From assembly GCA_012523975.1 (NCBI GenBank), contig JAAYSF010000038.1, positions 8,390 to 72,389 of the forward strand: a stretch of DNA of 64,000 bases. The letters are read 5' to 3'. Origin of the DNA: Veillonellaceae bacterium. GTDB lineage: Bacteria > Bacillota > Negativicutes > JAAYSF01. The translations under genes were made by a program, and so were the position numbers. How positions within the stretch are numbered: position 1 is the stretch's first letter; each line of letters begins with the position of its first letter. Under the pieces are notes generated by a model. That model had not been told where the DNA came from. It saw only the letters and a program-made list of their open reading frames with translations, and made no database searches. This document shows, in pieces, positions 8,899 to 34,085 of the stretch.

Positions 8899-9543
8899 TT
8901 ATTGCTTTTGGTGGGAACGGCGCTCGGCAATAAGTTCAATGACTTCAAGCGAGTTTATCAGGGCTAAATCCTGTTCACGCCGGGCGTCAATAATTTTATG
9001 TCCGCCGCAATGAATACATCTTAACGCAATGCCATCGGGCAGAAGGTTAATCTCGACAGCACTGCTGCCGCAACGGCAGAAAATTCCACCACGCTCAGCA
9101 ATATCATGGACCCTGTTCAGTATCTCCAACATAAGCGACGGATTCTCAATATATTCACCATAATCATCAAAATCCATTTCATGAATAATGCTATCAAACT
9201 CACGCTTATGGTCAGCAATCGTTTTTTCAATAACGTTCCGCTTCCCAATGAAGCCCAATTCAAGGTTTTCCTGAGCACAATAAATTTTGTCAAAATTAGT
9301 ATGCCAGAATTCTTTCTTGTTTAGACGTATTATGTGATTTGTCTGACAAAGCAAGCAAGGGATATTGAGCAGATATTGGTGCCGGCAAGCGGTAAGCGTT
9401 GCCTGAATTTGGCCGCAGCTGCAGCTAAGATCCAGCCGCATCGAACTTTTCATTGCAAACCGCGAAATATCATGATTCTGAATTTTGCCGCATCGAGGAC
9501 AATAAAGCGCCAATGTGGCAACCGTACCAATGATCATTTTCAA
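8899..9543 (-). CDS. Cys-rich hypothetical protein (multiple CxxC/CxC pairs; probable Zn-binding)
   Basis: 214 aa with CPRCG, CSCG, CLLC, CRCG, CIHCG. Immediately downstream of spo0F. No family recognised. Confidence 0.5.
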
Positions 9544-9636
9544 TCCCCCTTTCTGCCTAATCTTTTCGCCAAAGAGGAAAAAAATCCTGCATGCAAAATT
9601 GAAGCATCCGCTGGTTTAACCCGCGGATGCTAAAAA

Positions 9637-10038
9637 TTATCCTATTCTCAATTGACGTGATACTTCGGTGCCGGCAATCTGCTGGCTGACCATCTGACAC
9701 AAATTAATTATGTCGAAAGGCTTGGTAATATAAGTGTACGCTCCAAGCTGCTGAGCTTGGTTAACAAGTTCCAATTCACCATAGGCAGTCATCATGATAA
9801 CTCGGTCGGCTTTACCAATCCGCTTTAGTTCCCGCAGCGTTTCAATTCCATCCATACCAGGCATTTTCATGTCCATTAGCACTAAATCCGGATTAGTGTC
9901 CTTGACTTGCTGCACGCCTTCGTAACCATTTGCGGCGGTAAATACAGTATAGCCTTCTTCAGCTAAAACTTCGACTAATAACCGCCTAATACCAGGTTGA
10001 TCGTCAATTACTAAAACTTTTGAATTAGCATTAGCCAT
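9637..10038 (-). CDS. spo0F: Sporulation phosphorelay single-domain response regulator Spo0F
   Basis: 133 aa. Near-colinear with B. subtilis Spo0F: VLVIDDQPGIRRLL ... DLVLMDMKMPGMDGIE ... IMMTAYGEL ... KPFDI. Confidence 0.85.
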   Translation of the reverse strand: MANANSKVLVIDDQPGIRRLLVEVLAEEGYTVFTAANGYEGVQQVKDTNPDLVLMDMKMPGMDGIETLRELKRIGKADRVIMMTAYGELELVNQAQQLGAYTYITKPFDIINLCQMVSQQIAGTEVSRQLRIG

Positions 10039-10079
10039 CCTTTGATCACCTTATTTCTCAATTTACTGTCCTAGTACAT

Positions 10080-10115
10080 GTTTATTCGCACTCAATGACA
10101 AATATCCTCCTATAA
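10080..10115 (-). promoter_or_regulatory. Candidate sigmaH-type promoter with an embedded Spo0A-box-like TTTGTCATT upstream of spo0F
   Basis: Minus strand reads AGGAGGATA -14 nt- CGAATAA, about 45-75 nt upstream of the ATG. The real SD, AAGGTGAT, lies further downstream. Confidence 0.35.
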
Positions 10116-10184
10116 TTTGGTAAGAACGTATTATTTTCAAAATTTTGGGCGATTTTTTTAGAATATCTTACTAAAACTTATTTT

Positions 10185-12521
10185 TTACCGCCCAAAACCA
10201 ATCTTATCCACCAACCAAAACAGCATATTGTTATGATAAATTCTCATTGTATACTTTGCCTGTGCATCATCGACAGTAAATTCGATGTCGTTATAAGGGG
10301 TCGGCAGCGCCCATGTCGAATAAATTTGTTCACCGTTTTTCAAGATGCTGATTCGGTAAGCATCGTCACGGTAATAAAGCGGATACTTGACTGATACATT
10401 ATGCCGGTGGTTTTGATCAATGACAATATCCCGTCCAAGAATATTAATGGCATACTCGCTAATCCAATTGCCGGATTTTAAACATTCTCCGTATACAGCT
10501 GTTAGTTTAGGCGTGTAATAGTCCAGATATGCTGCCACCAGCTCGGTCGCTGTCCCAAAAACCAGCTGCCCCGAATCAGCATAAGCTGCTTTTAAATAAG
10601 CTAAATGGTCATTAATAGCATCAAACTGCCCGCCTTGCAGACTTTTCCAATCACCTTGCCCCATAATGAACATAGCATGAGTAAAGCCAACAATCGCATG
10701 AACGCCTGGCTGGACTTGGCCATCAACGGTAAAGTAGGCCATACCTTGATCAGCTTTGCTATTCATGACGGCTGCTGTCTGGTTATCATAGCAGATAAAC
10801 GCGCGCGGCGTCGGTTTAAATTCAACAACGCCAAGTTGCTGCAAATCTGTTGCCCTGGTATTGATATCATCCGGGGCCGCAAAGTAAATTTCCTGACCGT
10901 AGTCGGCCGACGTTACTCCGCCGGCATTGCCATCAGCGTCGCTAGAACCCCATAAACCCGTTTTTCTAAAGGCTGCAGTACTTTTTAACTCGTCCTCACT
11001 GCCATTGCCAAAATCAAATGACCCGGCTCTGGCTGTCAGGATTTGACCTTGCCTTGAAGCGCTGGCAAGCCGATCCAAAATTCGCTGATAGGAATAAAGC
11101 ATTCCTACCCGGCTGGTATGATCATTGAAATCACCCTCATCAGCAGTCGAGTGTGCCCAGCCATGCTTTAAATGATTTGCCCACAGCCCGTCCACAGCCG
11201 GGTTATACGATAACACATTACCTGGTAAATAAGGATCATAATCAGAATGTAAATGAATGCCGTATTCATGTCCTCGCTCACTTTGGTGGCGTACTGATTG
11301 TTCGATAGCCGTTACGGCTTTCTGCCAATTGTCATCTTTAGACTGTGATGCCGCCCACTCGGCTGCTTTGACTGCCGGCCAGGCAATATAGTGGGTCCAC
11401 TTAGCTCCATGAAGTTCAGCAATCCTGTTAAGCTTTTCGGCTTTATGCACAAGTTGGACGATATACTCTTCAGAGTCTAGCCAACCGTTTTTATTGCCCC
11501 AGTCAACTGGATAACCAGCCGAATCAATCGGCTCCAAATCTTCGGTCATAACATAAAAGACTTTACCGGGCCGCAGGTCAGTAATATCTATTTTGACAAT
11601 TGCAGCAGTTTTTACGTTATTAATAGCAAAGCCAACTTGCCACGGTTTGTTTAAGTTGACACTGTTTGCTCGCTGAGCGCTGACTTGCCAGATCAGTTCC
11701 CGGCTCTCATTCGGCTGTAATATCTCAATAGCCTTTACGGCGTTTGACGTAGTGACACCAAAGCCATATGGTTCAAGCAGCATAACTTCGATATTATGGA
11801 CAGCTGCTTTATTATCGTTATGAACTACCGCCCTTATCTCAATCTTGTCACCCACATTGGCAGCAATTTGAGGTTCAGCCGGCATGATTTTTACCGACTT
11901 TTCTTTATCGTGCCCTACAGCAAATTCTTTAATTAAGGCATGCTGCCCCTGACCAACCTCGACACTTAAGCGATACTTACCGACATTTCCCGAGTGCTGC
12001 GCAGTAAACTGCTCGGTAAATATATCAGTAATATTATAAACCGCCTGCATCCAGTCACCTTTATAGTTAGTATTTGAGCGGATGTCAATCCATTTGACTG
12101 TACTCGAATTAGCAGGCAATTGTCCGGTTACCACCCAGCCGACCGTCGAAATAATCTTGCCTTGACTATCTACCGAGCTGATTTTGAGGCGGCCGGTCCC
12201 CTGAGTCGATAAAAACTGCAGATGAAATTTGGCCAAAGCGTTCGGTCCCGCCGCGCCTTCAACGGAATACTCTAAGCTTCCGCTTCCACCGGCAGCAAGT
12301 TCCAGCATCGTCCCACTGTTCCACTTATCACCAGACAACACACGATAGGTATTGCCCTCACCCTGTTGGATAAGATTGCCGTGAACCTTCCAAGCAGTCA
12401 GTTTGTCCTCTTCATTAGGCCGCAGCCCGGCTACAGGTTCCGAAGCTGGAAGTGTTCCGCAGCCGGCCAGCGCTGCAAGTATTAGCAGCAATAGTAAAAA
12501 TACAATCATTCGGTATCTCAT
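10185..12521 (-). CDS. Large lipoprotein of unknown function (~779 aa mature)
   Basis: Start taken at MRYRMIVFLLLLLILAALAGCG (SD GTGGAG), giving signal peptide plus lipobox LAGC. The six-frame-track start at 12560 is a GTG with no SD. No catalytic motif recognised. Confidence 0.6.
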   Translation of the reverse strand: MRYRMIVFLLLLLILAALAGCGTLPASEPVAGLRPNEEDKLTAWKVHGNLIQQGEGNTYRVLSGDKWNSGTMLELAAGGSGSLEYSVEGAAGPNALAKFHLQFLSTQGTGRLKISSVDSQGKIISTVGWVVTGQLPANSSTVKWIDIRSNTNYKGDWMQAVYNITDIFTEQFTAQHSGNVGKYRLSVEVGQGQHALIKEFAVGHDKEKSVKIMPAEPQIAANVGDKIEIRAVVHNDNKAAVHNIEVMLLEPYGFGVTTSNAVKAIEILQPNESRELIWQVSAQRANSVNLNKPWQVGFAINNVKTAAIVKIDITDLRPGKVFYVMTEDLEPIDSAGYPVDWGNKNGWLDSEEYIVQLVHKAEKLNRIAELHGAKWTHYIAWPAVKAAEWAASQSKDDNWQKAVTAIEQSVRHQSERGHEYGIHLHSDYDPYLPGNVLSYNPAVDGLWANHLKHGWAHSTADEGDFNDHTSRVGMLYSYQRILDRLASASRQGQILTARAGSFDFGNGSEDELKSTAAFRKTGLWGSSDADGNAGGVTSADYGQEIYFAAPDDINTRATDLQQLGVVEFKPTPRAFICYDNQTAAVMNSKADQGMAYFTVDGQVQPGVHAIVGFTHAMFIMGQGDWKSLQGGQFDAINDHLAYLKAAYADSGQLVFGTATELVAAYLDYYTPKLTAVYGECLKSGNWISEYAINILGRDIVIDQNHRHNVSVKYPLYYRDDAYRISILKNGEQIYSTWALPTPYNDIEFTVDDAQAKYTMRIYHNNMLFWLVDKIGFGR

Positions 12522-12639
12522 ATCATACTCCACTTTTTTGTTGTATGTGTCGCGAGACACTTAAACGAACGGCTGAACAGCATCAGACCCCCAAAGCGTC
12601 TTTATGGCGAATTACAAACCCCGCCCTGCGGGACTCCTC

Positions 12640-18138: not shown

Positions 18139-18326
18139 AATATATCACCTTTCAACAACGAATATATTATAACCTACTCGGAAAGGCTTGCCAACTTTTT
18201 AAGTGAAAAGGTTTTCTTTAGTCAAAAACCAAGCGCCGCTTGTCCAATATGGGACAAACGGCACTGTCGCGTCATTTTTCCATTGTTAGTATATGCAAAT
18301 AGATGCAAAAAACTCAAATAAACAAC

Positions 18327-19199
18327 TTACTTGCTGTCTTTTTGATAAAGGTTAACTAACTCGCTAGTCGAAACTTGGACTGACTCTACCATTTGAATAA
18401 TATCCTGCATAGCGCGAGCTTGCTCAGCTGAAATCGAAGCAGATTGGTTAATGCCCTCAATTACTTTTTGAATTGCATCTTGAATTTCTTGCAGAATTTT
18501 ATTGATATTTTCAGTTGCGTCAGCACTGTTTTGGGCCAATTTTTGCATTTCCTGGGCAACAACTGCAAAACCGCGGCCATGCACGCCGGCGCGGGCAGCC
18601 TCAATGGAAGCGTTAAGACTCAAAAGCTTGGTCTGAGTAGCAATGCCCCGGCTCATATCCAGAATCTTTCCGGTGTCTTTCACTTTTCTCACAGCTTCGT
18701 GTGATACTTTTACTACACCGTCAGTGGTTGCCGCCAACTCTTGCGACGAGGCCGAAATTTCTTCTACCGCAGCCGCCGCTTGGTGGACATTGTTCGAAAC
18801 AAGCGCAACCACTTGTTCAACAGCTATTCGTTGATAATCTTCCTTCACCCGGGCCGATACGACGGCTGCACCTACTTGCGTAAGCGGTCTAACAATTTCA
18901 ATAGGACCAGTAATGCCAAATGTACCGATCCGTTCGCCGTCAGCTTCAATCAGGCAGCTGAAACCCTCTTTAACATTAGGGTTTTGCGCGGCCTCCTCCG
19001 GCGTCACTGTATAATCGTCCATAAGTCCCTGAACAATCTTTTGCGCTCCTGCATGCTTAGTGCCAACCCGTACTCCGCCTAAACAGTCGGCAATTACTGT
19101 TCCCGTATCATCACAGATAATCATATTATAACCGGTTTTACCTTTAATAAATTGGACAAGTTCACCTGCAAGCGCGCTGGGAATCTTGTAATTAGCCAT
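18327..19199 (-). CDS. Soluble chemoreceptor-like protein: Diacid_rec (CdaR-type sugar-diacid recognition) N-domain + short MCP signalling domain (copy 1)
   Basis: No TM segment. N-terminal [30 protein letters not shown] ... [13 protein letters not shown] resembles the CdaR N-terminal domain. C-terminal [34 protein letters not shown] is the MCP signature. Confidence 0.75.
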
Positions 19200-19244
19200 A
19201 TTCTAACCCCTCTTTGTTCTGTGGATTTAAGCTAAGATATATTG

Positions 19245-20117
19245 CTATTTGGATTCTTTCTCAAAAATAGCTACTAAATTGCTTGTCGATGTTTGAACAG
19301 ACTCGACCATCTGAATAATATCCTGCATCGCATGGGCCTGTTCGCTTGAAATAGATGCCGTCTGATGAATGCCTTCAATGACCTTTTGAATTGCCAGTTG
19401 AATTTCATTAAGAATATTATTGATGTTTTCAGTTGCGTCGGCACTGTTTTGCGCAAGTTTCTGCATTTCTTGGGCAACTACAGCAAAGCCCCGGCCGTGT
19501 ATACCGGCGCGGGCGGCCTCAATTGAGGCATTTAAACTCAAAAGTTTCGTTTGGGTCGCAATCCCGCGGCTCATATCAAGAATTTTCTCGGTATCTTTAA
19601 CTTTCTTGACAGAATCCTCCGAAAGCTTAACTACACTATCGGTAGTGGACGCTAATTCTTCGGAGGACGCTGAAATTTCTTCAACAGCAGCTGCCGCTTG
19701 GTGCACATTGGTAGAAACATTAGAAACCACTTGCTCTACAGCCTGCCGTTGATAATCTTCCTTGACTCGGGCCGCAACAACGGCGGCGCCCACTTGGCTG
19801 AGTGGTTTAACAATATCAATCGGACCGCCGATTCCAAATGATCCAATCCGTTCGCCGTCAGCCTCAATCAAACAGTTGTAGCCTTCTTTAACGTTAGGGT
19901 TCTGTGCTTCCTCTTCAGCCGTTACAGCATAATAATCGGTAAGACCCTGGACAATTTTTTGAGCCCCAGCATGCGTAGTACCAACTCGAGCTCCGCCTAC
20001 ACAATCTGCAATTATCGTTCCATTCTCATTGCAGATAATCATGTTGTAACCAGTTTTACCTTTGATAAATTGCACAAGTTCACTTGCAAGCTCAGTGGGA
20101 ATGCTGTAGCTAGCCAT
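19245..20117 (-). CDS. Soluble chemoreceptor-like protein: Diacid_rec + MCP signalling domain (copy 2, tandem paralog)
   Basis: 290 aa, about 85% aa identity to copy 1 and collinear. Same domain order. Confidence 0.75.
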   Translation of the reverse strand: MASYSIPTELASELVQFIKGKTGYNMIICNENGTIIADCVGGARVGTTHAGAQKIVQGLTDYYAVTAEEEAQNPNVKEGYNCLIEADGERIGSFGIGGPIDIVKPLSQVGAAVVAARVKEDYQRQAVEQVVSNVSTNVHQAAAAVEEISASSEELASTTDSVVKLSEDSVKKVKDTEKILDMSRGIATQTKLLSLNASIEAARAGIHGRGFAVVAQEMQKLAQNSADATENINNILNEIQLAIQKVIEGIHQTASISSEQAHAMQDIIQMVESVQTSTSNLVAIFEKESK

Positions 20118-20324
20118 GTCCTACACCTCTCTCTGTAATAATTTTATGAGCGTTAGCAACCTACGAAGACTCTTGTAGGCCGCTCTAGATAATTTGTTAT
20201 CGAGATTCCGCCTAATCCTTTTCCTTTTTTATACATCTTTCCACAAAGCCACTAGAAATCCTGCATTATGGACAATGTTTTTTCATTTTTCACGTCTTTT
20301 TCCAGAATATAACTATACTAAAAA

Positions 20325-20358
20325 AAGCCGTAGCGCCGCTGCTCTGGAGCAGCGGCGC
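20325..20358 (-). terminator. Terminator (second of two) downstream of the 20457-20954 gene
   Basis: 11-bp perfect stem gcgccgctgct/agcagcggcgc followed on the minus strand by tacggcttttttt. Confidence 0.5.
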
Positions 20359-20407
20359 CTAATCGGGATGAAGCGCCGTTGGGCTGCCTCTCCCATTATA
20401 ATAATAT

Positions 20408-20456: not shown

Positions 20457-20954
20457 TTAGTAACCAATAATTAGCAAACTCTTGATAAAGCTGAACAGAT
20501 GCTCAATATTACATAACCGTTTGATTGTATTATCATAGAAATCCATCTTCGTTTGCTGTCCCTGTCTGATAACGGGAACCAAGAGGACACCATGTGTTAT
20601 AACAGGTGACTCGGCAAACTTGCAGATATTCTTCCAGATATTATTTATTTCACCTTTTTCTACTTCGACGGCAATTTGCAGTTCCGGGTGAAAAAAGTCT
20701 ATCTCAAAGTTCAAGCCGCGTTTAAACAAATTTTCATATTTACGATTTGTGACTGAGTGGAGGAATCCCAACTTTTCCATATCTGCGGCGATCGCCTTCT
20801 CGGCCTCGATACTTTTACGAAAGGGAGTATTGCGAATTTCAACCAGAGCCTCACTATTACTGACAACGATCTGACAGAGCGGCGACTCGTGCGGATTTTC
20901 CGCCAGCCGATACAGATATCGGCGCGGCGGATATTCTTGCTTGGCTGACTGCAT
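20457..20954 (-). CDS. Hypothetical protein with a possible PD-(D/E)xK nuclease-fold motif
   Basis: Start set at MQSAKQEY (SD AGGAGG 9 nt upstream), giving 166 aa. Motif EIDFFHPELQIAVEVEKGE has D ... ExK spacing. No family identified. Confidence 0.45.
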   Translation of the reverse strand: MQSAKQEYPPRRYLYRLAENPHESPLCQIVVSNSEALVEIRNTPFRKSIEAEKAIAADMEKLGFLHSVTNRKYENLFKRGLNFEIDFFHPELQIAVEVEKGEINNIWKNICKFAESPVITHGVLLVPVIRQGQQTKMDFYDNTIKRLCNIEHLFSFIKSLLIIGY

Positions 20955-21025
20955 TATTATCAACCTCCTGACAGAAAAACGAAGGGTAACAAAGTAATGG
21001 TTGGTGCTCTGCGCCCTTCGTGCAT

Positions 21026-22048
21026 CTAATCCCAAAGTTTAGTTATTACAACACCGGGGTAATAGTGGGTAATCATTTCCGCAGCGGTCTTACCATGCTG
21101 CGCATCAGCATAGGCTCCCCACTGGCATAAACCAACGCCATTTCCCCAGCCCCTTCCTTTAAAAGTAAAATTTCTGCCATCATAAGTCATCTCAGTAATT
21201 AATGTTGATTTAAGCCGATCATAACCAATACGTTTGCGAAACTCGGAACCATAAATTTTTGTATTGCCAACGCCGATATATAAAATCCGGCCTGATGGCC
21301 CCCGTTCTAGGATTGTTATATTACGGGGGTCGCCTTTATAACCTATTGCGGCTGCCACCTGATTCCCCGGTATCTTGACCGTCCAGTTGCACTGCTCAGC
21401 CGGTGCAAACTCGAAACAATTATCGGCTATCGGCTGAAAATAGGGCGTTGGGTGTTGGATTTCGGTTGGAAAACTTTCTTCTTTAGTAGCTCCGACCTGC
21501 GCGTTGCAGGAACTATAAATGGCATTAACCAGCGTACCGTTATAGAGGATTATTTGTCCCCGGGTTTTTCTAACAGCCTCACGGACCTTATCATTTACTT
21601 TTTCTGGAGCATAAGCCTGCAGTTCTTCTTTCGAGGTGCTTACGTCGGTACCGTGCAATCTTCTGATTGTTCCGGCTTCAATAGCGCTGATTGTAAGGGT
21701 GCGCGAGGCGATAGCCTGGGCAGCCAAAGCCTCAAGTGGCCAATCCGGGAACATTTCTTTGGCAATTACGCCTTCAAGATATTTTTCCAGCGGCATGCTT
21801 TCAATCGTGCCTCTGTCGTACCTATATACCGAAACAACTGGCTCAGTCTTATATTTCCCAGTATCAAACTTGGGTACGCCCGGCATGGGGTCAGCCGGAG
21901 CTGGTGCCGGCGCCGGAGTGCTAGGGGCCGGCGGGGTCTCAGGAGGCTGCTTAGGGGCAGGAGAACGCAATAGACTGTATGCTCCCGTAGCAATTGCGAT
22001 AATTAGAATTATAATTATTGCGGCATTTAAATTGCGACTTTTTTGCAT
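21026..22048 (-). CDS. spoIID: Stage II sporulation protein D (SpoIID/LytB-domain lytic transglycosylase/amidase enhancer)
   Basis: N-terminal TM plus Pro-rich linker. SpoIID/LytB domain (NGTLVNAIYSSCNAQVGATKE ... GRGWGNGVGLCQWGAYADA). Confidence 0.85.
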   Translation of the reverse strand: MQKSRNLNAAIIIILIIAIATGAYSLLRSPAPKQPPETPPAPSTPAPAPAPADPMPGVPKFDTGKYKTEPVVSVYRYDRGTIESMPLEKYLEGVIAKEMFPDWPLEALAAQAIASRTLTISAIEAGTIRRLHGTDVSTSKEELQAYAPEKVNDKVREAVRKTRGQIILYNGTLVNAIYSSCNAQVGATKEESFPTEIQHPTPYFQPIADNCFEFAPAEQCNWTVKIPGNQVAAAIGYKGDPRNITILERGPSGRILYIGVGNTKIYGSEFRKRIGYDRLKSTLITEMTYDGRNFTFKGRGWGNGVGLCQWGAYADAQHGKTAAEMITHYYPGVVITKLWD

Positions 22049-24661: not shown

Positions 24662-24700
24662 AAAAATCGCAGCCAGGTACGGCTGCGATTTTCAGCTTAT
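24662..24700. terminator. Bidirectional terminator between the MurE-like gene (+) and the LarA-like gene (-)
   Basis: aaaaaaaa-atcgcagcc-aggtac-ggctgcgat-tttcagcttatttt: stem flanked by an A-run and a T-run. Confidence 0.6.
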
Positions 24701-25959
24701 TTTACATATGGAATAGTCAGCGGTCCTAGTGGCAGAACAGCTACTCTTGCATTCGGGCCATACTTATCCATGAGCTGTTTCAAAGTATCTTCTATATCTT
24801 CTACATGATTTAGCATAGCTTGTTTAACGGTTTCTTTATCAAGTGACGAATACAAATAGCAATCAGCTTTTAATTGAATCATCGCCTGCTTTTGCGCTTC
24901 CCATTGGTCGAATAACCGATAAGACGGTTCGTTAATCATATCGAGGAGTTCTTGCGGCGTTTTTCTTGCTTTAAGAATATCCGCGTAGTTACCATGGTTC
25001 GGCAAGCCATCTGAACATTCCGAAACTGCAATTATCGCACCGCCCTGCTTGACAATTTCAGCACCGGCGCTCATTCCTTTAACAGTCTGATACAGATTTT
25101 GGTCAAGCGGATAGCCTGAGTTTGTTGTAATGACAATATCAAATGGCTCATCGACTGCATACATAGCATGTTTCTTAACAAATTCACAACCAATGCGATG
25201 AGCTTCAATTACATCGCCAGCAAATACATCGGTAATTTCTTTGTCGCCATTTAAAGTGACATTGAGCATAAACTGCGGCTTGGCCATCAGGCAGTTTTGG
25301 GTAGCAGCATTCTGCAGAATATTCCCGGCGATAGTCCCCCAAGTACTGTTAGGATCACCAATCATTTGCGCATTGTGGAAGTCAAGAATAGTCTCAATAC
25401 TGCATATACCAGGGCAGATGCCTTTGGGGCCGCCTGAGAATCCGGCAAAGAAGTGCGGCTCAATGAAACCGGTTACAATTTTGAAATCACATTCTACGTA
25501 AGTTTTATTTAGGTATACTTTTGAACCATAACTATTAGTGCCTACATAAGACAGCTCGTCCGGATTAAATGCATCGCTTTGAACGATTTTTACGGTATTA
25601 ACTATATCTTCACCTAACATCTGAATTAATTCTTCACGAGTGTTCGCCCGGTGACTGCCTAATCCGTTGATGACGACAAAGTTTTCCCGCGGCACATGAG
25701 AAAGTTCTTCCATAATCCATGGTACCAATTTATGACTCGGAGTAGGACGAGTCAGGTCGGCAATTACAATACCGACTGTGTCGGTCGCCTTGACCATTTC
25801 CTTGAGCGGTCGGGTGCCAAAAGGATTTCGCATTGCCTTGATTACTGCCGCTTTTTCATCAGCCAAACCGTCTAAATGACGAGGCTCGATTACTTCTGCA
25901 TTATCCGGCACATTAACTACAACATGCCCCTTACCATACGCTAACTTAACCTGTTTCAT
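24697..25959 (-). CDS. LarA-family (lactate racemase-like, nickel-pincer cofactor dependent) alpha-hydroxy-acid racemase/epimerase homolog
   Basis: Start set at MKQVKLAYGKGH (SD GAGGTGAT). Collinear with L. plantarum LarA, including LTRPTPSH and GFIEPHFFAGFSGG. Confidence 0.8.
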   Translation of the reverse strand: MKQVKLAYGKGHVVVNVPDNAEVIEPRHLDGLADEKAAVIKAMRNPFGTRPLKEMVKATDTVGIVIADLTRPTPSHKLVPWIMEELSHVPRENFVVINGLGSHRANTREELIQMLGEDIVNTVKIVQSDAFNPDELSYVGTNSYGSKVYLNKTYVECDFKIVTGFIEPHFFAGFSGGPKGICPGICSIETILDFHNAQMIGDPNSTWGTIAGNILQNAATQNCLMAKPQFMLNVTLNGDKEITDVFAGDVIEAHRIGCEFVKKHAMYAVDEPFDIVITTNSGYPLDQNLYQTVKGMSAGAEIVKQGGAIIAVSECSDGLPNHGNYADILKARKTPQELLDMINEPSYRLFDQWEAQKQAMIQLKADCYLYSSLDKETVKQAMLNHVEDIEDTLKQLMDKYGPNARVAVLPLGPLTIPYVK

Positions 25960-26077
25960 GATTATCACCTCTGAAATTTTTCCAAACACGATACTTATTA
26001 TATTATTTTGATTATTAGCGCGAATATTCCTTCCGATTTCCAATTGTGAAAAAAAGACTTTAGTTGTAACTATTTTT

Positions 26078-27153: not shown

Positions 27154-27213
27154 TTATATTCAGAATAGTTATGTAGTTCGGAATTGTTGACAACATTCAT
27201 AGGAGGTCGCAAA

Positions 27214-28656
27214 TTGGACAAATTCGATGGTCTAGAGAATATTACCTTGCTTGATCTTATAGCCATTGAAGAGCTACAGGAAATCCAGGATGTCTATGCC
27301 GAAGCACTGGGGATAGCGACGATAATCACCGATCTGGACGGACATCCCATAACCCAGCCGAGCAACTTTTCTAAAGTCTGCAACATGGTACGGGCTACAG
27401 AAAAAGGCTTAGAAAACTGTATGTATTCCGGCAAAGTTATGGGAGCGAAAGCTCATCAATTACTTGTGCCAACCTATCAGAAGTGCCTTAGCTGCGGCTT
27501 CATTGATGCTAGCGCACCTATCACTGTAGACAACAAGCATATCGCCAATTGGGTAGTTGGGCAAATAAACTCAGGTGAAGTCGACGCCGATCATCTTCGG
27601 GCTTACGCTCTGGAAATCGGGGCAGACCCTGACGGATTGGCCAACGCGCTGGACCAAACCCGCGATATGCCGCTGCCGCGTTTCGAAAAGATTCTTCGTT
27701 TATTGTGGCTGCTAGCCCAAAAAATTTCTGCCATGGCCTACAATAATCTGCTTTTATCGCGTGATAACTTGATGCTTAGCCAAGCTGAACGTGAAATTAA
27801 GCAGCTCAATCAGGCTCTTGAAAGTCGTGTATTGGAGTTTGAAGCCGCTAACTCAGATTTACAGCAAACGCTTGCCAAACTCCAAGAAACTCAGGAGCAT
27901 CTTATTCAGCAGGAAAAATTGGCCTCATTAGGCAGTCTGGTTGCCGGCATTGCTCATGAGATAAATACTCCTATCGGTTCAGGTGTAACGGCAGCCTCAT
28001 ATTTGGAACAGGAAACCAATGCCATTGTTAAACAGTTCAAAGCCAATGCATTAAGACGATCCGAACTGGATAGCTATCTTGCTGCTTCTAATGAAGCGAT
28101 AAAAATTATTCTCATAAACCTGAGGAGAGCCTCAGAGCTAATATCCAGTTTTAAAAAAGTAGCGATAGACCGCTCCAGTGATGCCAAACAATTCTTCAAT
28201 ATCAAGAAATACATTGGGGCAGTAATTTTAAGTTTACGACCCCAGCTAAAAAAAGCCAACCACCATATTATTGTCAAATGCGATGATTATATCAACTTAA
28301 ACAGCTATCCTGGTGACTTTTCCCATATTATCACAAACCTAATTATAAATACACTTGTTCACGCTTATCCGTCAGGAAATCAGGGAACCATCACAATTGA
28401 TGTAAGCCACCAAAATGATAAGCTAACACTTATTTATTCAGATGACGGCATCGGCATTCCCGAAAACCACTTACCTAAAATTTTTGAGCCTTTTTTTACA
28501 ACTCGTCGAGGCAATGGCGGTACCGGATTAGGGCTTAATATTATTTACAATATTGTCACCCAAAACCTTAAAGGATCAATAAGCTGCACTAGCCGGCCAA
28601 ATCAAGGAACAAGCTTTACTATAACAATTCCAACCGAAAATGGAGGTACCTTATGA
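27214..28656 (+). CDS. Cytoplasmic sensor histidine kinase with N-terminal PocR sensory domain
   Basis: TTG start 7 nt after AGGAGG. PocR-like domain (conserved Cys pattern KVCNMV ... ENCMYSG ... CLSCGFID), coiled-coil, HisKA (LVAGIAHEINTPIG) and HATPase_c. Confidence 0.85.
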   Translation: MDKFDGLENITLLDLIAIEELQEIQDVYAEALGIATIITDLDGHPITQPSNFSKVCNMVRATEKGLENCMYSGKVMGAKAHQLLVPTYQKCLSCGFIDASAPITVDNKHIANWVVGQINSGEVDADHLRAYALEIGADPDGLANALDQTRDMPLPRFEKILRLLWLLAQKISAMAYNNLLLSRDNLMLSQAEREIKQLNQALESRVLEFEAANSDLQQTLAKLQETQEHLIQQEKLASLGSLVAGIAHEINTPIGSGVTAASYLEQETNAIVKQFKANALRRSELDSYLAASNEAIKIILINLRRASELISSFKKVAIDRSSDAKQFFNIKKYIGAVILSLRPQLKKANHHIIVKCDDYINLNSYPGDFSHIITNLIINTLVHAYPSGNQGTITIDVSHQNDKLTLIYSDDGIGIPENHLPKIFEPFFTTRRGNGGTGLGLNIIYNIVTQNLKGSISCTSRPNQGTSFTITIPTENGGTL

Positions 28657-30224
28657 ACAACCTGGAGGAGGCAGTCGAAGCCGACCAGTCTAATGACTTA
28701 CTTCAATGGGCTGAAGAAACAGAAAGTTTCCAGCCGCAAACAGATAGTTTCTGGAAGATTATGATTATTGATGATGACGAAGCTGTCCATAGTGTTACCA
28801 AATTAGCCCTTCGTCATTTTGTCTTTGAGGGAAAGAAGCTTGAATTTATCAGCGGTTACTCGGCAGCTCAAGCGCGCGATCTTATTGTGAAACATCCCGA
28901 TACTGCCATTCTTCTGCTTGATGTCGTAATGGAAGACGACGATGCTGGTTTAAAAGTGGCGCGCTATATTCGCGAAGAATTAAATAACTCGTTTGTAAGG
29001 ATTATACTTCGGACTGGCCAAGCAGGTCAGGCTCCTGAGGAAAAAGTAATTCTCGAGTATGATATTAATGATTATAAAGAAAAAACCGAACTTACCGCCC
29101 GTAAGCTTTTCACAACGGTAATAGCCGCCCTGCGGGCCTACCGGGATATAATAACAATTGATGCTAACCGCCAGGGCTTGGAAAAAATTATCGAAGCCTC
29201 GGCATCAATCTTTAAAGTTCAATCAATGACCAAATTTGTATCAGGAGTTCTTAGACAACTTGTTTCTATTCTTGGCCTGAATAAGAATTCTTTATACTGC
29301 CAAACTTCCGGTTTTGCTGCAACGAATACCGGCGGCGATTTTCGAATTATGGCTGCAACCGGTGATTTTGAAAAACATATCAACGAAAAAATCGAAACTG
29401 TTTTGCCTCAGGATATTTTAAACGAACTCAATACCGTTTTTACCGCTAAAGAAAGCATGCATTTCGGCAATCGGTTTTTGGGCTATTACCATAGTAATTC
29501 CGGCTCAGAAAGCATTATATATCTTGAAGGACTGCAAACCTTAAACAAAATTCAGAAAGACCTTGTAGTTGTCTTCTTTAATAACGTAAGTACCGCCTTT
29601 GATAACCTTTATCTAAATGAGCAACTGGCTAACGACCAGATGGAAATGCTCTTTACTTTGGGAGAAATGGCCGAAAATCGCTCGCATGAAACCGGCCTCC
29701 ATATAAAAAGAGTAGCTCGTTATTCCCGGCTGTTTGCGCTTAAATACGGTTTAAACGAAGATGAAGCTTCCCGGCTACAGTTAGCTTCATCAATGCATGA
29801 TATCGGTAAACTGGCTATCGAGGATAAAATCCTCAAAAAGCCGGGTCAGCTTACGCTTGAAGAATTTGCTGTAATCAAACGCCATTCGCTCATTGGCTAC
29901 CAAATTCTTAGCAGTTCCAACCGGCCGCTTTTAAAAACGGCAGCCATCATAGCCCTTCAACATCATGAAAAATTTGACGGCACCGGGTATCCTAATAATC
30001 TTTGCGGTGAAAATATCCATATTTATGGGCGAATAACTGCTATTGCCGATGTTTTAGACGCCCTCAGCAGCGACCGGGTTTACCGTCCTGCCTGGCAGAT
30101 TGATAAAGTATTACTATATATTAAAGAACAAAGCGGTAAACATTTTGATCCGCAATTGGTTGATATACTATTTAAAAACCTGGATGAATTCCTTGCAATT
30201 ATGAATGAAACAAGCGAGGACTAA
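28653..30224 (+). CDS. Response regulator with REC domain + middle (GAF-like) region + HD-GYP c-di-GMP phosphodiesterase domain
   Basis: ATGA overlap with the kinase gene. REC (MIIDDDEAV ... LLLDVVME). HD-GYP (HDIGKLAI ... HHEKFDGTGYPNNL). Confidence 0.85.
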   Translation: MNNLEEAVEADQSNDLLQWAEETESFQPQTDSFWKIMIIDDDEAVHSVTKLALRHFVFEGKKLEFISGYSAAQARDLIVKHPDTAILLLDVVMEDDDAGLKVARYIREELNNSFVRIILRTGQAGQAPEEKVILEYDINDYKEKTELTARKLFTTVIAALRAYRDIITIDANRQGLEKIIEASASIFKVQSMTKFVSGVLRQLVSILGLNKNSLYCQTSGFAATNTGGDFRIMAATGDFEKHINEKIETVLPQDILNELNTVFTAKESMHFGNRFLGYYHSNSGSESIIYLEGLQTLNKIQKDLVVVFFNNVSTAFDNLYLNEQLANDQMEMLFTLGEMAENRSHETGLHIKRVARYSRLFALKYGLNEDEASRLQLASSMHDIGKLAIEDKILKKPGQLTLEEFAVIKRHSLIGYQILSSSNRPLLKTAAIIALQHHEKFDGTGYPNNLCGENIHIYGRITAIADVLDALSSDRVYRPAWQIDKVLLYIKEQSGKHFDPQLVDILFKNLDEFLAIMNETSED

Positions 30225-30337
30225 CAGAGCCTCCGGTCCAATATCATGATTTAGAACGATATTTAAATAATTGTCAAGGGACGCTATTTGATACGGACTA
30301 TATTTTAATACCTGACAGAAATGAGTTAAAAAAAATA

Positions 30338-30811
30338 ATGCTTGAAAAACCTTTTGAGATGGATGAGATTGTTGTCGATAATCTTCTTAAAACATATAAC
30401 AATTCTCGTATCTACTATGCGATAGAGTATGTTAAAAACATGAAAAATGTAAATCATTATCCGTCTTATTTGTATAGGAGCATTGAGAGAAATTATGGCC
30501 AACAATGGGCAGATGCTCAATTTTCAAAAAGTAAGAAAAAACGAGAGGCAAAAGAAAAGGCCGCAGAGATTGAAAGAAAATTACGTGAAGATTTAGATAA
30601 AGAAATTGATCTGATTAATAGTAAATCAGATCCAGCTGCATTTCTTGAATTATATAAGTCAAGAAAACAAACGGCTGCTGTTAAACACGCTGAGGCTCCG
30701 ACTAAATCTTTTGTACCGACAAAAGAGATGTTATTGGAAATGTTGTCCTTAACAAAAGACGGTCCGGCTAAAGATAGATTAATTGAAACATATGGCTATT
30801 TACTTAAATAG
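30338..30811 (+). CDS. Hypothetical protein (157 aa; charged/KE-rich C-terminal half)
   Basis: ORF at the island border. No recognisable domain. Confidence 0.5.
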   Translation: MLEKPFEMDEIVVDNLLKTYNNSRIYYAIEYVKNMKNVNHYPSYLYRSIERNYGQQWADAQFSKSKKKREAKEKAAEIERKLREDLDKEIDLINSKSDPAAFLELYKSRKQTAAVKHAEAPTKSFVPTKEMLLEMLSLTKDGPAKDRLIETYGYLLK

Positions 30812-30895
30812 CAAAAAAAGAAAGAAAAAGACTACCGTTTTGTGTTAATAGATTTAAAATAACACAGAATGGTAGTCTTTCTTTTTTACTTTTTT

Positions 30896-31393
30896 TTAAG
30901 CTTTAATATTTGCTTTGCGTTTCTTGGCACAGCTTGGACATCTTGTGCCTTTATATAAGAAGTTTTTTACGAACACGTTCCAGACCTTACCGCAGGTAAC
31001 ATGTTTAATATTTATCCGGCGGGAAAGAGGACAGTATTCACCGGCTATCTCATATTCGCCATTGGTTAATTTAGGAATTCTTTCTCTTAACTGTTCTGTA
31101 TCTAAAGGGATAGCGCCCCGGCCGAAGCATTTAGGACAACGATTACCTTTAACGAGAAAATTATGAGGAAATACTGGCCACTCGTGGCCACAGGTAACAT
31201 GTTTCATATTAACGCGATTATTAATACCACGATATGTTCCTGTTACGATATAATCGGTCCCAACAGCTTCCAAGACCTTAGCCTCGAATGACTGCTGAGT
31301 GTCTTTAAGAGCGCGAAAGTGACGATAATTTTTGCGGTGTTTTAAGCGACGAATCGCGAGTTCTTCTCTTTCGAGATCATCAATGATTGACAT
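30896..31393 (-). CDS. Protein made of 2 tandem copies of a ~55-aa His/Cys zinc-ribbon-like module (short paralog)
   Basis: Modules ...YIVTGTYRGINNRVNMKHVTCGHEWPVFPHNFLVKGNRCPKC and ...YEIAGEYCPLSRRINIKHVTCGKVWNVFVKNFLYKGTRCPSC. SD AAGGAAGG. Loosely resembles DUF4379/PF14311-type zinc-ribbon repeats (from memory). Confidence 0.55.
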   Translation of the reverse strand: MSIIDDLEREELAIRRLKHRKNYRHFRALKDTQQSFEAKVLEAVGTDYIVTGTYRGINNRVNMKHVTCGHEWPVFPHNFLVKGNRCPKCFGRGAIPLDTEQLRERIPKLTNGEYEIAGEYCPLSRRINIKHVTCGKVWNVFVKNFLYKGTRCPSCAKKRKANIKA

Positions 31394-31479
31394 GGTTATG
31401 AATCTACCTTCCTTGCTTTATTAATAAGTGATATAATAAATAAAATAATTGCTGAGAGAAGAGAGGGTGGGGTACATTT

Positions 31480-31659
31480 ATGGGACATGCTAATAATAAA
31501 GAAAAATCTAAGCACCCTGGTAATGCTACCACAGATGAAAAACGTAAAGACGGATCTACGAGTATGCCGCCGGTTCGTTCCGCTCGTTGTGGAGATGACA
31601 AACTTATCATAGTTTTTAATGAGAAATTAGTAGAACATCTCATGTTAATGAAAAAATAG
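31480..31659 (+). CDS. Small basic hypothetical protein (59 aa), divergent from the 2-module gene
   Basis: MGHANNKEKSKHPGNATTDEKRKDGSTSMPPVRSARCGDDKLIIVFNEKLVEHLMLMKK. SD GAGGGTGGGG. Coding-like composition. Preferred over the low-complexity antisense ORF 31404-31643. Confidence 0.3.
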   Translation: MGHANNKEKSKHPGNATTDEKRKDGSTSMPPVRSARCGDDKLIIVFNEKLVEHLMLMKK

Positions 31660-31690
31660 TACGTTGCTATTTTAGCAACAGTAAATATTT

Positions 31691-31730
31691 AACCCCTGAC
31701 ATTATCGTATATTACGGTAGGTCAGGGGTT
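31691..31730. terminator. Perfect 10-bp inverted repeat (aacccctgac ... gtcaggggtt) with a 20-nt loop between convergent island genes
   Basis: Lies downstream of both the plus-strand small ORF and the minus-strand 3-module gene. No U-tract, so the function is uncertain: it could be a terminator or a protein-binding site. Confidence 0.4.
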
Positions 31731-31751
31731 CTTTGCACCCTCACGATTGTT

Positions 31752-32414
31752 TTATTTCGTGGGGGATTTTTTATTTATTGCGGTATTTATTTCCGCTTTT
31801 TCTTTCTTCTTATTTTCAGCGCAGATTGGGCACACCGGATTACTACTAACTAGTGTATTGCCCTTTACTAAGTATTGATGATCGCAGTTATTATCGAGAA
31901 CAACAATATCATCGGAGTAACCGTGACTTAATTCATTGCTAATTATAGTAAAACGATCACTGTGTTTATTTTTGACTCTAATCTTCAAGTCTTCAAGAGT
32001 TGCTTTCCCGCGATTGCATCGAGGACACCTATTGCGTTTTTTACCGACAAAAAATGTTGGCCGTATCATCCATTCTCTTCCACATATGTTGTGCCTCATT
32101 AAAATAGGGGTGTCCCCATCTACGTATTCTCCAAGAACTGAATACTCATTGCCGACTTGATTCAATACTTTCTCTTTAAAAATATCTGCTTCCAAAACTT
32201 TATTTCTTGAATTACATTTAGGACATCTATTTCCGATATTGACAAAGTTAGAAGCTATGACTTCATATTCGTGACCACAAGTGTTGTGTCGCATCAGAAT
32301 TTTTTTATAAGATTTAACATAATCACCAAGGACAGTATATTCGTTACCGACTAACTCATAAACTCTTTTTTTAAAAGATTCTGTCGTATATTTATTTGGT
32401 CTTACTTTTGCCAT
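31752..32414 (-). CDS. Protein made of 3 tandem copies of the same His/Cys zinc-ribbon-like module (long paralog)
   Basis: Modules FKKRVYELVGNEYTVLGDYV ... RHNTCGHEYEVIASNFVNIGNRCPKCNS, FKEKVLNQVGNEYSVLGEYV ... RHNICGREWMIRPTFFVGKKRNRCPRCNR, and a third copy ... CDHQY ... CPICAE. Confidence 0.55.
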   Translation of the reverse strand: MAKVRPNKYTTESFKKRVYELVGNEYTVLGDYVKSYKKILMRHNTCGHEYEVIASNFVNIGNRCPKCNSRNKVLEADIFKEKVLNQVGNEYSVLGEYVDGDTPILMRHNICGREWMIRPTFFVGKKRNRCPRCNRGKATLEDLKIRVKNKHSDRFTIISNELSHGYSDDIVVLDNNCDHQYLVKGNTLVSSNPVCPICAENKKKEKAEINTAINKKSPTK

Positions 32415-32585
32415 ATTGTGAAGACTCCATTTCTCGCTGTTTGAAAGACATATTACGGAGCGAGAATAGGTGTTTTCACATTTTTTTATTATAAATAAAA
32501 ATTTTTATTATATATTTTTTAACCTAGTCGTTTCAAAGTTTTTTTATTTATAAATGAAAATGTCTCAGATCGTCTCGGTATGTAT

Positions 32586-32614
32586 TTGACTTTATTCATG
32601 ATTGTAAGTAAAAC
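32586..32614 (+). promoter_or_regulatory. Candidate sigmaA promoter TTGACT -17- TAAAAC for the 32687 gene
   Basis: Hexamers with ideal spacing 73 nt upstream of the ATG. Confidence 0.4.
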
Positions 32615-32686
32615 TTTTAGCCCCCGGGTATCACTCAACGCAAAACAAATTATGGTCACGCGGACCTTAAACGTAGGAGAATAATT

Positions 32687-33025
32687 ATGACTATTGCACA
32701 AATCAAAACTAAAGCTTTTCATCTTAAAAAGGCAGGTATTGTAGTTATTGAATTAATTGATGATCATGGCATAGAGGTATCATGCTTAATTAATAACACT
32801 AAACGTGTTATTGGTTATATCAAAGCTGAAGACAAGATTCAAGAAATGTTAGTATTGGCTGCTAATACTGTAGTGTCAGCTACTGGTACACAAACTGTTG
32901 TATGCACAGATGTATATAACAGAATGTTTAAGATGGTAAATCATCGCTTAGAAGATGATGCTATCTTTATGGATGTGCTTAAAAATGATGAATATAAAAT
33001 TCATAGCAATGCCTTTAATTGTTAA
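32687..33025 (+). CDS. Hypothetical protein (112 aa)
   Basis: SD GGAG 8 nt upstream. No recognisable family. Confidence 0.5.
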   Translation: MTIAQIKTKAFHLKKAGIVVIELIDDHGIEVSCLINNTKRVIGYIKAEDKIQEMLVLAANTVVSATGTQTVVCTDVYNRMFKMVNHRLEDDAIFMDVLKNDEYKIHSNAFNC

Positions 33026-33193
33026 GTCTTATGTGCACAAAAGATAAAAGAACAATACAAACTAGATGTCCTAAGCACGACAGTAATAAACTGCTTATTT
33101 TTTTATGCTCTGCTTCTGTAGCTATGTACTATCTAGGTATGGCTGCAGTATGGAGTGCATAAGCACTACTAAAAAAAGGGAAGGAGGTCAACT

Positions 33194-33322
33194 ATGAATA
33201 AAAGAAAAACCGCCACTGTAGCAGCAGTGACGGTCATCCTTGTAATTCTAATTGTGTTGCTGTCTCTACACGGCACAGTTAGTATTACAATCTCCAATGT
33301 ATCTGTCTATATAGGCAGATAG
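33194..33322 (+). CDS. Small single-TM peptide (42 aa): basic N-terminus + hydrophobic helix
   Basis: MNKRKTATVAAVTVILVILIVLLSLHGTVSITISNVSVYIGR. Strong SD GGGAAGGAGG. Own terminator at 33330-33372. Confidence 0.45.
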   Translation: MNKRKTATVAAVTVILVILIVLLSLHGTVSITISNVSVYIGR

Positions 33323-33329
33323 GCTGGAG

Positions 33330-33372
33330 CGTCTTGGAGGCGGACGTTAAACGCCTCTTTTCTTTTATTCTA
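33330..33372 (+). terminator. Terminator after the 42-aa peptide gene
   Basis: Stem ggaggcg/cgcctc followed by ttttctttt. Confidence 0.5.
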
Positions 33373-33410
33373 ATCTGCTAAAAATTAAAAGTCAAATTTT
33401 AAAGGAGAGA

Positions 33411-33647
33411 TTGATTATGAATAACTTAGCTATTAACACCACTTCTAAAAAGGTTACTGTTTCTACTGAAAAAGGATTTAAGCTTCCTGGATCTGATAAG
33501 CGTTGGAAGCTAAGAAAAGACGCCCCTGTAAAGATCACGCTAGCAGTAGCCGCTGCCGGCGTTCTTTTATTAGGAGCGTCTCTTCCTGATTGTGATGTCA
33601 CTAGCATCACTACTGGTCCAGTTACCTGGAATCCGCTTGGTAGATAA
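33411..33647 (+). CDS. Hypothetical small protein (78 aa) with one hydrophobic segment
   Basis: SD AAAGGAGAG. Sequence MIMNNLAINTTSKKV ... ITLAVAAAGVLLLGASLPDC ... Confidence 0.45.
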   Translation: MIMNNLAINTTSKKVTVSTEKGFKLPGSDKRWKLRKDAPVKITLAVAAAGVLLLGASLPDCDVTSITTGPVTWNPLGR

Positions 33648-33802
33648 GAGCAACTTCAGTCTCTATTATACCATGTCCTGACATCACGGACAATAAACAA
33701 AAGATGCCGATGCGCCTAGATATAGGTAGCTGTGTAACTCAGCTTTAAAGCATCGTGTCGGCAATCAAACCGATGAAAATACATATAAGGAGCTGTCGTG
33801 CT

Positions 33803-33940
33803 ATGAGTAACAAGAAAGAAAAGTTAGAACGTGCCCGTCAAGTAGTACGGGAAGCCCAAGAGTTAGTTATCAAGTTCAAAGACTTAGATAAGAAAGCAGT
33901 TAAATTGCTCGTGAAGTACAAGCAACGATCTAATGATTAA
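33803..33940 (+). CDS. Small charged helical protein (45 aa; alternative upstream starts would give up to 61 aa)
   Basis: MSNKKEKLERARQVVREAQELVIKFKDLDKKAVKLLVKYKQRSND. AAGGAG sits 11 nt upstream of this ATG. Confidence 0.35.
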   Translation: MSNKKEKLERARQVVREAQELVIKFKDLDKKAVKLLVKYKQRSND

Positions 33941-34085
33941 GCATTGTCACGATCTGGCCAAGCCAATGAACTTGTAATACTAAGTGGCAGCCAAAGGTAG
34001 TAGATAGATCTATTTTTAATAAGTAGATTTAAAACATGCAAACATCAGCGATTGTGGTATAATAATAATTAAGGAGTTGATCTTG

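Follow-up and report, generated by a model that had tools for sequence, protein, structure and literature searches.

What do two adjacent genes for short soluble proteins, each of which joins a sensor related to that of the transcriptional regulator CdaR to the signalling hairpin of a methyl-accepting chemotaxis protein (MCP), do for the cell, and how did the pair arise? The genes lie on the minus strand of a 64-kb stretch of DNA from a Veillonellaceae bacterium (hereafter the window, which denotes the whole stretch that was analysed) and are termed copy 2, the upstream gene, and copy 1, the downstream gene. The evidence discussed in the following sections indicates that the two proteins are probably paralogous cytoplasmic chemoreceptors of the Diacid_rec-MCP type, which are encoded in one bicistronic unit and serve metabolite-sensing taxis.

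Domain architecture of the two proteins

The initial annotation described two open reading frames (ORFs) of 290 codons in head-to-tail arrangement, with products of ~85% identity. Both ORFs and their arrangement on the minus strand were confirmed (Table 1). The measured identity of the products is 82% (237/290 residues, with 91% positives and no gaps in BLASTP), slightly lower than first stated, and the nucleotide identity is 76.7%. In the Pfam scan, Diacid_rec (PF05651; gathering score 23.6) covers residues 8-123/129 with 68.6 and 74.7 bits in the two copies, and MCPsignal (PF00015; gathering score 34.6) covers residues ~161-287 with 92.6 and 94.0 bits. The fusion of a diacid-recognition domain to an MCP domain, as proposed from the letters of the sequence, is therefore borne out by scores well above the gathering thresholds, and the full-length structural model described below agrees with it. 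The maximum Kyte-Doolittle hydropathy over 19 residues is only 1.1-1.2 in both proteins, so that no transmembrane segment is predicted, and no HAMP domain was matched by Pfam in either protein. The initial annotation had denied the proteins both of these features, and rightly so. Chance would by no means produce such a pair of ORFs.

The two proteins, NLP41518.1 and NLP41519.1, are both named “chemotaxis protein” by NCBI, and the Joint Genome Institute (JGI) annotation uses the name “sugar diacid utilization regulator”. The JGI name, taken literally, would make them CdaR-type transcriptional regulators of sugar-diacid use, and the presence of Diacid_rec is in keeping with it. The sensors are homologous to the N-terminal domain of genuine CdaR (27-28% identity, E ~1e-9) and have the R..H-x-GA and G..GI.G motifs in common with it, and the CdaR likeness claimed at the outset is thus upheld. 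Nevertheless, neither a GGDEF_2-like middle domain nor HTH_30 was detected in either protein by Pfam at E<=1, and the C-terminal 165 residues constitute an MCP hairpin. This is in contrast to the genuine CdaR proteins encoded beside members of the family, which possess all three domains in ~390 residues. CdaR of E. coli (SdaR) likewise has a homologous N-terminal Diacid_rec sensor with both motifs, at 19-27% sensor identity, but its output is a DNA-binding HTH_30 domain reached through a GGDEF_2-like domain rather than an MCP hairpin. The chance that the window proteins are regulators of the CdaR type is practically negligible.

The AlphaFold2 model of the sensor (residues 1-135), which was built on 23 family sequences, has a predicted local distance difference test (pLDDT) score of 91.3 and a predicted template-modelling (pTM) score of 0.82. 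It follows the order helix, two strands, helix, strand, helix, two strands and a long exit helix that begins at residue 100, and describes a PAS/GAF/Cache-like alpha/beta fold with a five-stranded sheet, the strands of which are situated at residues 26-29, 34-38, 62-65, 79-86 and 89-97 in copy 2. Among solved folds, Foldseek places it nearest to two GAF domains (CodY and SpoVT) and to a set of PAS/Cache-like sensors (WalK, CitA, DcuS and DctB), with template-modelling (TM) scores of 0.5-0.63 and 10-18% identity. The top matches are GAF rather than Cache domains, and the placement of the sensor in the Cache clan, in which Diacid_rec is one of the two mainly intracellular families, therefore follows the survey of that clan (PMC4822843). 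No solved Diacid_rec structure, including any with bound ligand, was found by fold search or by sequence search. The sensor residues D38, R44, G46, H49, G79, G92, G98 and P105 are invariant in the family, E78 is near-invariant, and all of the invariant residues are identical between copy 1 and copy 2.

In the full-length AlphaFold2 model (pLDDT 88.5), the alpha/beta domain occupies residues 1-99 and is followed by an unbroken helix over residues 100-289. The modelled signalling region superposes on the hairpin of Tsr (1qu7) with 1.6 Å over 171 residues, and a PDB sequence search with the receptors gave matches to TM1143, Tsr and Tm14. The residues of the hairpin tip are invariant across 23 family members, in the conserved form LNAxIEAARAG..GRGFAVVA, and the wider region of residues 171-240 is 92.9% identical between the copies. 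In canonical MCPs, the tip region provides the contact surface for CheA and CheW. Two candidate methylation motifs, identified by their match to the consensus [ASTG][ASTG]xx[EQ][EQ]xx[ASTG][ASTG] alone, are situated on the N-terminal arm and both are near-invariant in the family. The C-terminal arm (residues 206-290) comprises 85 residues, or ~12 heptads, and the matching N-terminal arm begins at about residue 122. By this residue count, as distinct from class-specific hidden Markov models (HMMs), the modelled signalling domain falls in the 24-heptad (24H) length class with ~12 heptads per arm. Receptors of the 24H class have been assigned to the F1, F3, F5, F6 and F7 motility systems (PMC11253619), and those of V. 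cholerae are described as unexplained outliers (PMC7534058).

The best structural match of the whole protein is the integrative model of YfmS with CheW from B. subtilis (9a72_A), with a Foldseek E value of 1e-10 and TM scores of 0.56-0.57 over 298 columns. YfmS is a soluble orphan receptor of 286 residues that, like the window proteins, consists of a small N-terminal alpha/beta sensor and a short hairpin and has no transmembrane segment. The likeness lies in fold and size; only 19% of the structurally aligned residues are identical, and 9a72 was absent from the matches of the PDB sequence search with the receptors. YfmS shows that the chemotaxis system of a Firmicute can accommodate a receptor of such dimensions and design. 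Other cytoplasmic receptors, namely VC1406 and VCA0864 of V. cholerae, Tm14 of T. maritima and HemAT, also connect the sensor straight to the signalling bundle without a HAMP domain, and the 24H members of this group have the short bundle in common with the window receptors. They differ in the type of sensor, which is PAS (as in VC1406 and VCA0864), globin or none, in contrast to the Diacid_rec sensor of the window proteins.

Transcription unit and age of the duplication

Copy 2 and copy 1 form a separate bicistronic unit, because the spacer between them carries a ribosome-binding site (RBS) and no terminator, and because strong hairpins of the intrinsic-terminator type bound the pair at both ends (Table 1). 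The upstream hairpin insulates the receptor operon from transcription coming from upstream. No RNA element was matched by Rfam in the receptor locus at E<=1.

A location upstream of DUF1934-argS-pyrG is common to the receptor genes of the window clade, Dendrosporobacter, Sporomusa and L095, a relative with 52% identity; all of these except L095 also have the gene downstream of spoIID. Sporomusa-type Negativicutes keep the gene in the interval from spoIID to DUF1934-argS. Only one receptor gene occupies this locus in Dendrosporobacter and Sporomusa, whereas the window clade has a tandem pair in which copy 2 is a mosaic; the architecture is otherwise the same. We also note a gene between spoIID and the receptor pair (window 20457-21035, minus strand), which is found in the window clade and Dendrosporobacter and is missing in Sporomusa. 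A precomputed annotation assigns PF26497 (Halo_RE) to a 165-residue product of this gene, and the 192-residue ORF had no match in Pfam at E<=1e-3 or in NCBIfam at E<=1e-5.

The initial annotation viewed the pair as a recent tandem duplication whose ligand specificity is possibly diversifying. The genes are adjacent and of equal length, their products are 82% identical with no indels, and 21 of the 53 substitutions between them fall in the sensor core, all of which would be expected of such an event. The synonymous sites argue otherwise, as the proportion of synonymous differences (pS) is 0.65 and the corrected synonymous divergence (dS) is ~1.5, near saturation; sliding nucleotide identity along the gene pair ranges over 68-86%. 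Moreover, a relative from another sample (L005) has the same tandem pair at the same locus, with copies that are 57-82% identical to the window copies, depending on the domain. The neighbour-joining trees of the two domains place the window copies as sisters in only 5.5% (sensor) and 0.5% (signalling half) of the bootstrap replicates. The sensor of copy 2 lies inside the A-type clade together with copy 1 and its orthologs (97.5% bootstrap), while in the tree of the signalling half copy 2 joins the B-type upstream copies that relatives carry (92% bootstrap). The near-saturation of synonymous sites, the tandem pair in the relative and the domain trees together show that the duplication is old, not recent, and that copy 2 is a mosaic of an A-type sensor and a B-type signalling half.

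The pattern of substitution does not favour diverging specificities either. The nonsynonymous divergence (dN) is 0.115 and the ratio dN/dS (omega) is 0.075 for the whole gene, with values of 0.10 in the sensor and 0.054 in the signalling half, which points to strong purifying selection on both copies. The sensor of copy 2 is itself of the A type, not of the divergent B type found in relatives, the family-invariant sensor residues are the same in both copies, and the window sensors are more alike (79%) than the A-type and B-type sensors of relatives, which are ~57-65% identical to each other. A recent duplication on the way to new ligand specificity is accordingly very improbable, and this part of the initial annotation does not survive.

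The most economical account of the mosaic is a past gene conversion, in which the B-type sensor of copy 2 was replaced with an A-type sensor. The lower dS in the sensor (1.15 vs 2.08) fits an exchange at the level of domains, a difference that alone is not significant. A recent conversion of the whole gene was rejected as the cause of the 82% identity, since dS is high along the entire gene; only an older, domain-level exchange is supported. The upstream copy of the relative L005 (P0022; pair at 9108-10867 of that locus) shows a mosaic that is the reverse of the one in the window, with a B-type sensor and a signalling half nearer to the A-type copies. These reverse mosaics suggest repeated gene conversion, which affected different tracts in each lineage.

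Proposed ligand, coupling and output

The gene neighbourhoods of distant family members provide clues to the ligand. The genes for P0117 and P0114 are situated directly downstream of a glycerate kinase gene, which is itself divergent from a gene for genuine CdaR (L012/L013 and L094); the upstream region in L094 also contains GntP and DcuC transporter genes and an enolase-superfamily gene. The gene for P0123 (L096) lies directly downstream of genes for hydroxypyruvate isomerase and tartronate-semialdehyde reductase. All glycerate-pathway enzymes at these loci score above the NCBIfam cut-offs, and these enzymes produce or use D-glycerate. Between the MCP sensors and the CdaR sensors encoded beside them, identity is 27-28%, and the R44, H49, G79 and G..GI.G residues are common to both. 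The three glycerate-linked loci were considered as independent subfamilies and rejected as such, since the sensors of P0117, P0114 and P0123 are 67-69% identical to each other and constitute one subclade. Within the 64-kb window itself, there is no gene for glycerate kinase or CdaR. E. coli CdaR has glycerate, glucarate and galactarate as its effectors (PMC4551912), and CdaR has been evolved into a glycerate biosensor through specificity mutations in the diacid domain (bioRxiv 10.1101/2024.05.15.594374). The neighbourhood of the subclade suggests glycerate-type ligands for its members; for the window proteins, glycerate would be by analogy a lead and not a conclusion.

The following mechanism can be envisaged for metabolite-sensing taxis. 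A sensor of ~100 residues with a GAF/PAS/Cache-like fold is predicted to continue through its last helix, unbroken, into a short antiparallel coiled-coil hairpin, and the protein presumably dimerises. A small cytoplasmic metabolite would bind the sensor via the R44, H49, G79 and G..GI.G residues common with CdaR. The ligand is probably a hydroxy-carboxylate, with D-glycerate or a close relative as the leading candidate. The resulting conformational change would run down the helix to the tip, where it would alter the activity of the kinase CheA through CheW and thereby flagellar behaviour, and methylation of the EE/QE pairs by CheR/CheB-type enzymes would bring about adaptation. Overall, the cell would show a taxis that reports its internal metabolic state. 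Gene conversion between the tandem copies would have reshuffled the sensor and signalling halves after the old duplication.

Several observations weigh against this proposal. Neither the 64-kb window nor the 10 kb around the gene in any syntenic relative contains a che or flagellar gene, and the gene of the window clade sits among housekeeping and sporulation genes. Because such genes are lacking nearby, it is solely from sequence conservation, namely a tip that is invariant, motifs for methylation and strong purifying selection, that we infer coupling to CheA and CheW in the window organism. The glycerate-linked subclade is only 38-43% identical to the window sensors, and other subfamilies occur in unrelated contexts, including TauE genes, a sugar ABC transporter and an OmpA/LexA neighbourhood. 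An imperfect sigma-28/SigD-like element (GAAA-N15-CTCGATAA) ~76 nt upstream of copy 2 was considered and dismissed, as it has no counterpart at the orthologous loci. Finally, the 24H assignment comes from our own residue count rather than from a class-specific HMM.

With respect to promoters of this type in general, no conserved sigma-28-type sequence was found upstream of the orthologs in L005, L006, L007 and L095, and the strict sigma-28 pattern has one match in the window, away from the receptor locus, vs 1.0 expected. In L012, the locus of a distant family member, a cheR gene is located ~6 kb from the receptor gene. A literature search on che genes in Sporomusa relatives yielded nothing useful.

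The same surroundings could be taken as a sign that signals from the receptors enter a Che-like pathway that controls something other than motility, such as development, sporulation, germination or gene expression, or that the receptors act without CheA. In Sporomusa, Dendrosporobacter and the window clade alike, the gene has kept its place after spoIID and before DUF1934-argS-pyrG, with sporulation and housekeeping genes as neighbours; there are no che genes nearby, and no conserved sigma-28 promoter was found. However, the tip matches that of motility-type MCPs, and the closest architectural analogue, YfmS, belongs to the chemotaxis receptor set of B. subtilis and has been modelled on CheW from in-cell crosslinks. 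Synteny with neighbours that are separated by terminators does not imply co-function, and it is common for MCP genes to lie at scattered sites outside the che operons. We regard an output other than motility as unlikely.

It may also be asked whether the N-terminal domain senses anything. The two proteins could be ligand-independent components of the array, with a structural or adaptor role, in which the N-terminal domain serves for dimerisation only. No ligand is known for any member of the family, and short 24H receptors are outliers elsewhere (PMC7534058), both of which are compatible with such a role. Against it stand the purifying selection on the sensor (omega 0.10) and the conservation of polar residues, the invariant D38, R44 and H49 and the near-invariant E78, which are partly common with the ligand-responsive CdaR. 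In addition, histidine kinases and GGDEF domains also occur as fusion partners of this sensor, as would be expected of a signal-input module, and one subclade tracks glycerate-pathway genes. A purely structural role is consequently quite improbable.

Metabolite-sensing taxis by a pair of cytoplasmic receptors thus remains the preferred reading, and a more far-reaching form of it may be sketched. The receptor could be a vertically inherited core sensor of spore-forming Negativicutes, marked by its position at spoIID and DUF1934-argS, which reads a cytoplasmic three-carbon hydroxy-acid such as glycerate and confers metabolism-dependent taxis. As a soluble 24H receptor among membrane receptors of a presumably longer class, it might assemble into a cytoplasmic array of its own or insert tip-first into the membrane array. 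The paralogs may heterodimerise and could be kept compatible by recurrent gene conversion. We consider this extended proposal, taken as a whole, distinctly unlikely.

The surrounding window and the wider family

The window derives from a spore-forming Negativicute, and the coordinates of the receptor features and of other genes are summarized in Table 1. A single-domain response regulator (9637-10038, minus strand) adjoins the transaldolase gene (TAL) and glpX, surroundings that we take to mirror the spo0F neighbourhood of B. subtilis. It was considered as CheY and rejected on account of this spo0F-like neighbourhood and the lack of an NCBIfam CheY call above cut-off, no NCBIfam family at all being called above cut-off for it; a Spo0F-like protein is more likely. 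Between the Yip1 gene and this regulator lies an ORF of 791 residues without a Pfam match (10185-12560, minus strand). Three relatives (L001, L005 and L095) carry ORFs of 764-778 residues without a Pfam match at the same position, and the product looks like a conserved protein of unknown function. The region ~30000-34000 has a GC content of 0.36 vs 0.44-0.47 elsewhere and a change in the sign of GC skew; it contains small ORFs with CapR homology, a treble-clef zinc finger (DUF4379) and ORFs without a Pfam match, and is probably an inserted islet. A T-box leader (RF00230, 42303-42521, plus strand; 103 bits vs a gathering score of 93) is located directly upstream of the ORFs 42568-43047 and 43044-44210, which encode an AsnC/Lrp-type regulator and a class I/II aminotransferase, an unusual cargo, since T-box leaders generally precede genes for aminoacyl-tRNA synthetases or transporters.

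Table 1. Coordinates of the receptor pair, its control elements and other genes in the window
Feature	Position	Strand	Description
Copy 2 (upstream gene)	19245..20117	minus	290 aa, ATG start, NCBI NLP41519.1; soluble Diacid_rec + MCPsignal receptor
Copy 1 (downstream gene)	18327..19199	minus	290 aa, ATG start, P0005, NCBI NLP41518.1; A-type soluble Diacid_rec + MCPsignal receptor
Copy 2 sensor region	19743..20117	minus	residues 1-125; Diacid_rec alpha/beta GAF/PAS/Cache-like domain and start of exit helix
Copy 1 sensor region	18825..19199	minus	residues 1-125; Diacid_rec; 79% identical to copy 2 sensor
Copy 2 methylation-consensus motifs	19644..19694	minus	residues 142-158; two overlapping, 7 residues apart, at E146-E147 and E153-E154
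Copy 1 methylation-consensus motifs	18726..18776	minus	residues 142-158; same two motifs, the second being Q153-E154
Copy 2 hairpin tip	19443..19562	minus	residues 186-225; near-invariant in family; turn at G205/I206
Copy 1 hairpin tip	18525..18644	minus	residues 186-225
Intergenic spacer	19200..19244	minus	45 bp; AGAGGGG RBS 7 nt 5' of copy 1 ATG; no terminator
Intrinsic-terminator-like hairpin	20332..20359	minus	12-bp stem, 9 GC pairs, T-run; ends upstream Halo_RE-like gene
Sigma-70-like promoter candidate	20265..20293	minus	GTGAAA-17-CATAAT, 9/12, weak; upstream of copy 2, tentative assignment
Intrinsic-terminator-like hairpin	18232..18265	minus	14-bp stem, T-run; 62 nt past copy 1 stop codon; ends two-gene unit
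Near-consensus promoter for DUF1934-argS	18166-18194		TTGGCA-17-TATAAT; beyond the 18232..18265 hairpin
SpoVT	843-1412		
Mfd	1559-4837		
LarA-like lactate racemase	24697-26043		
PocR-sensor histidine kinase and response-regulator-DUF3369-HD protein	27184-30224		
L-lactate permease	44526-46151		
SpoVAD	57404-58408		

The initial annotation implied that the architecture is rare, and this impression has to be corrected. Diacid_rec-MCP fusions were already counted at 30 in data of 2012 (Upadhyay et al. 2016, PMC4822843). A large protein search retrieved >120 full-length relatives of ~285-290 residues with both domains, from Sporomusa, Pelosinus, Dendrosporobacter, Anaeromusa and Veillonellaceae metagenome-assembled genomes (MAGs), which are named “methyl-accepting chemotaxis protein” or “sugar diacid utilization regulator” in the databases. 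The catalogued fusions of the four named genera possess the same two Pfam domains and no transmembrane segment, are 44-84% identical to the window proteins over their full length, and occupy the orthologous position in Sporomusa-type genomes. With a profile of the sensor only, 1,887 clusters at 50% identity were found at E<=1e-3 and 410 at E<=1e-10. Among 112 of the best cluster representatives, which were scanned with Pfam, Diacid_rec was present in all 112, MCPsignal in 68, a histidine kinase in 23, GGDEF in 9 and HTH_30 in 2. The MCP-type sensors thus form a branch of their own, with HTH_30 in only 2/112 of the nearest sensor clusters. In agreement with the initial annotation, full-text literature searches found no experimental work on a Diacid_rec-MCP fusion.

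Among the cluster representatives, P0121 (575 residues) contains two Diacid_rec and two MCPsignal stretches, equivalent to a tandem receptor pair in one polypeptide, and represents either a natural fusion or a frameshift or assembly artefact. A profile scan of genome contigs with the full-length alignment mostly retrieved generic MCPs via GRGF[AS]VVAxE, and only two loci were informative. The first (L014 9968-10837, Pelosinus MAG JARBUM010000003) encodes a 289-residue paralog of a second Diacid_rec-MCP subfamily, which is 35% identical and lies downstream of a sugar ABC transporter. The second (L015 9632-10540, Desulfosporosinus sp. HMP52) encodes a short soluble MCP of at most 302 residues with an N-terminal domain that has no Pfam match.

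For the window itself the result is ordinary, in that the pair represents two intact genes under selection, already-annotated members of a large, experimentally untouched Diacid_rec-MCP family. The present analysis contributes the placing of the receptors as 24H and YfmS-like, the old age of the duplication together with conversion at the level of domains, the chromosomal position that Sporomusa-type Negativicutes conserve, and the shortlist of glycerate-type ligands. For most cytoplasmic chemoreceptors the ligand is not known, and Diacid_rec domains have neither a solved structure nor a ligand that has been demonstrated directly. The window proteins are compact, soluble and easy to express, and the neighbourhood of the glycerate-linked subclade gives a concrete shortlist of ligands. 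If binding were shown, hundreds of receptors would be annotated and the sensing of effectors by CdaR would be clarified.

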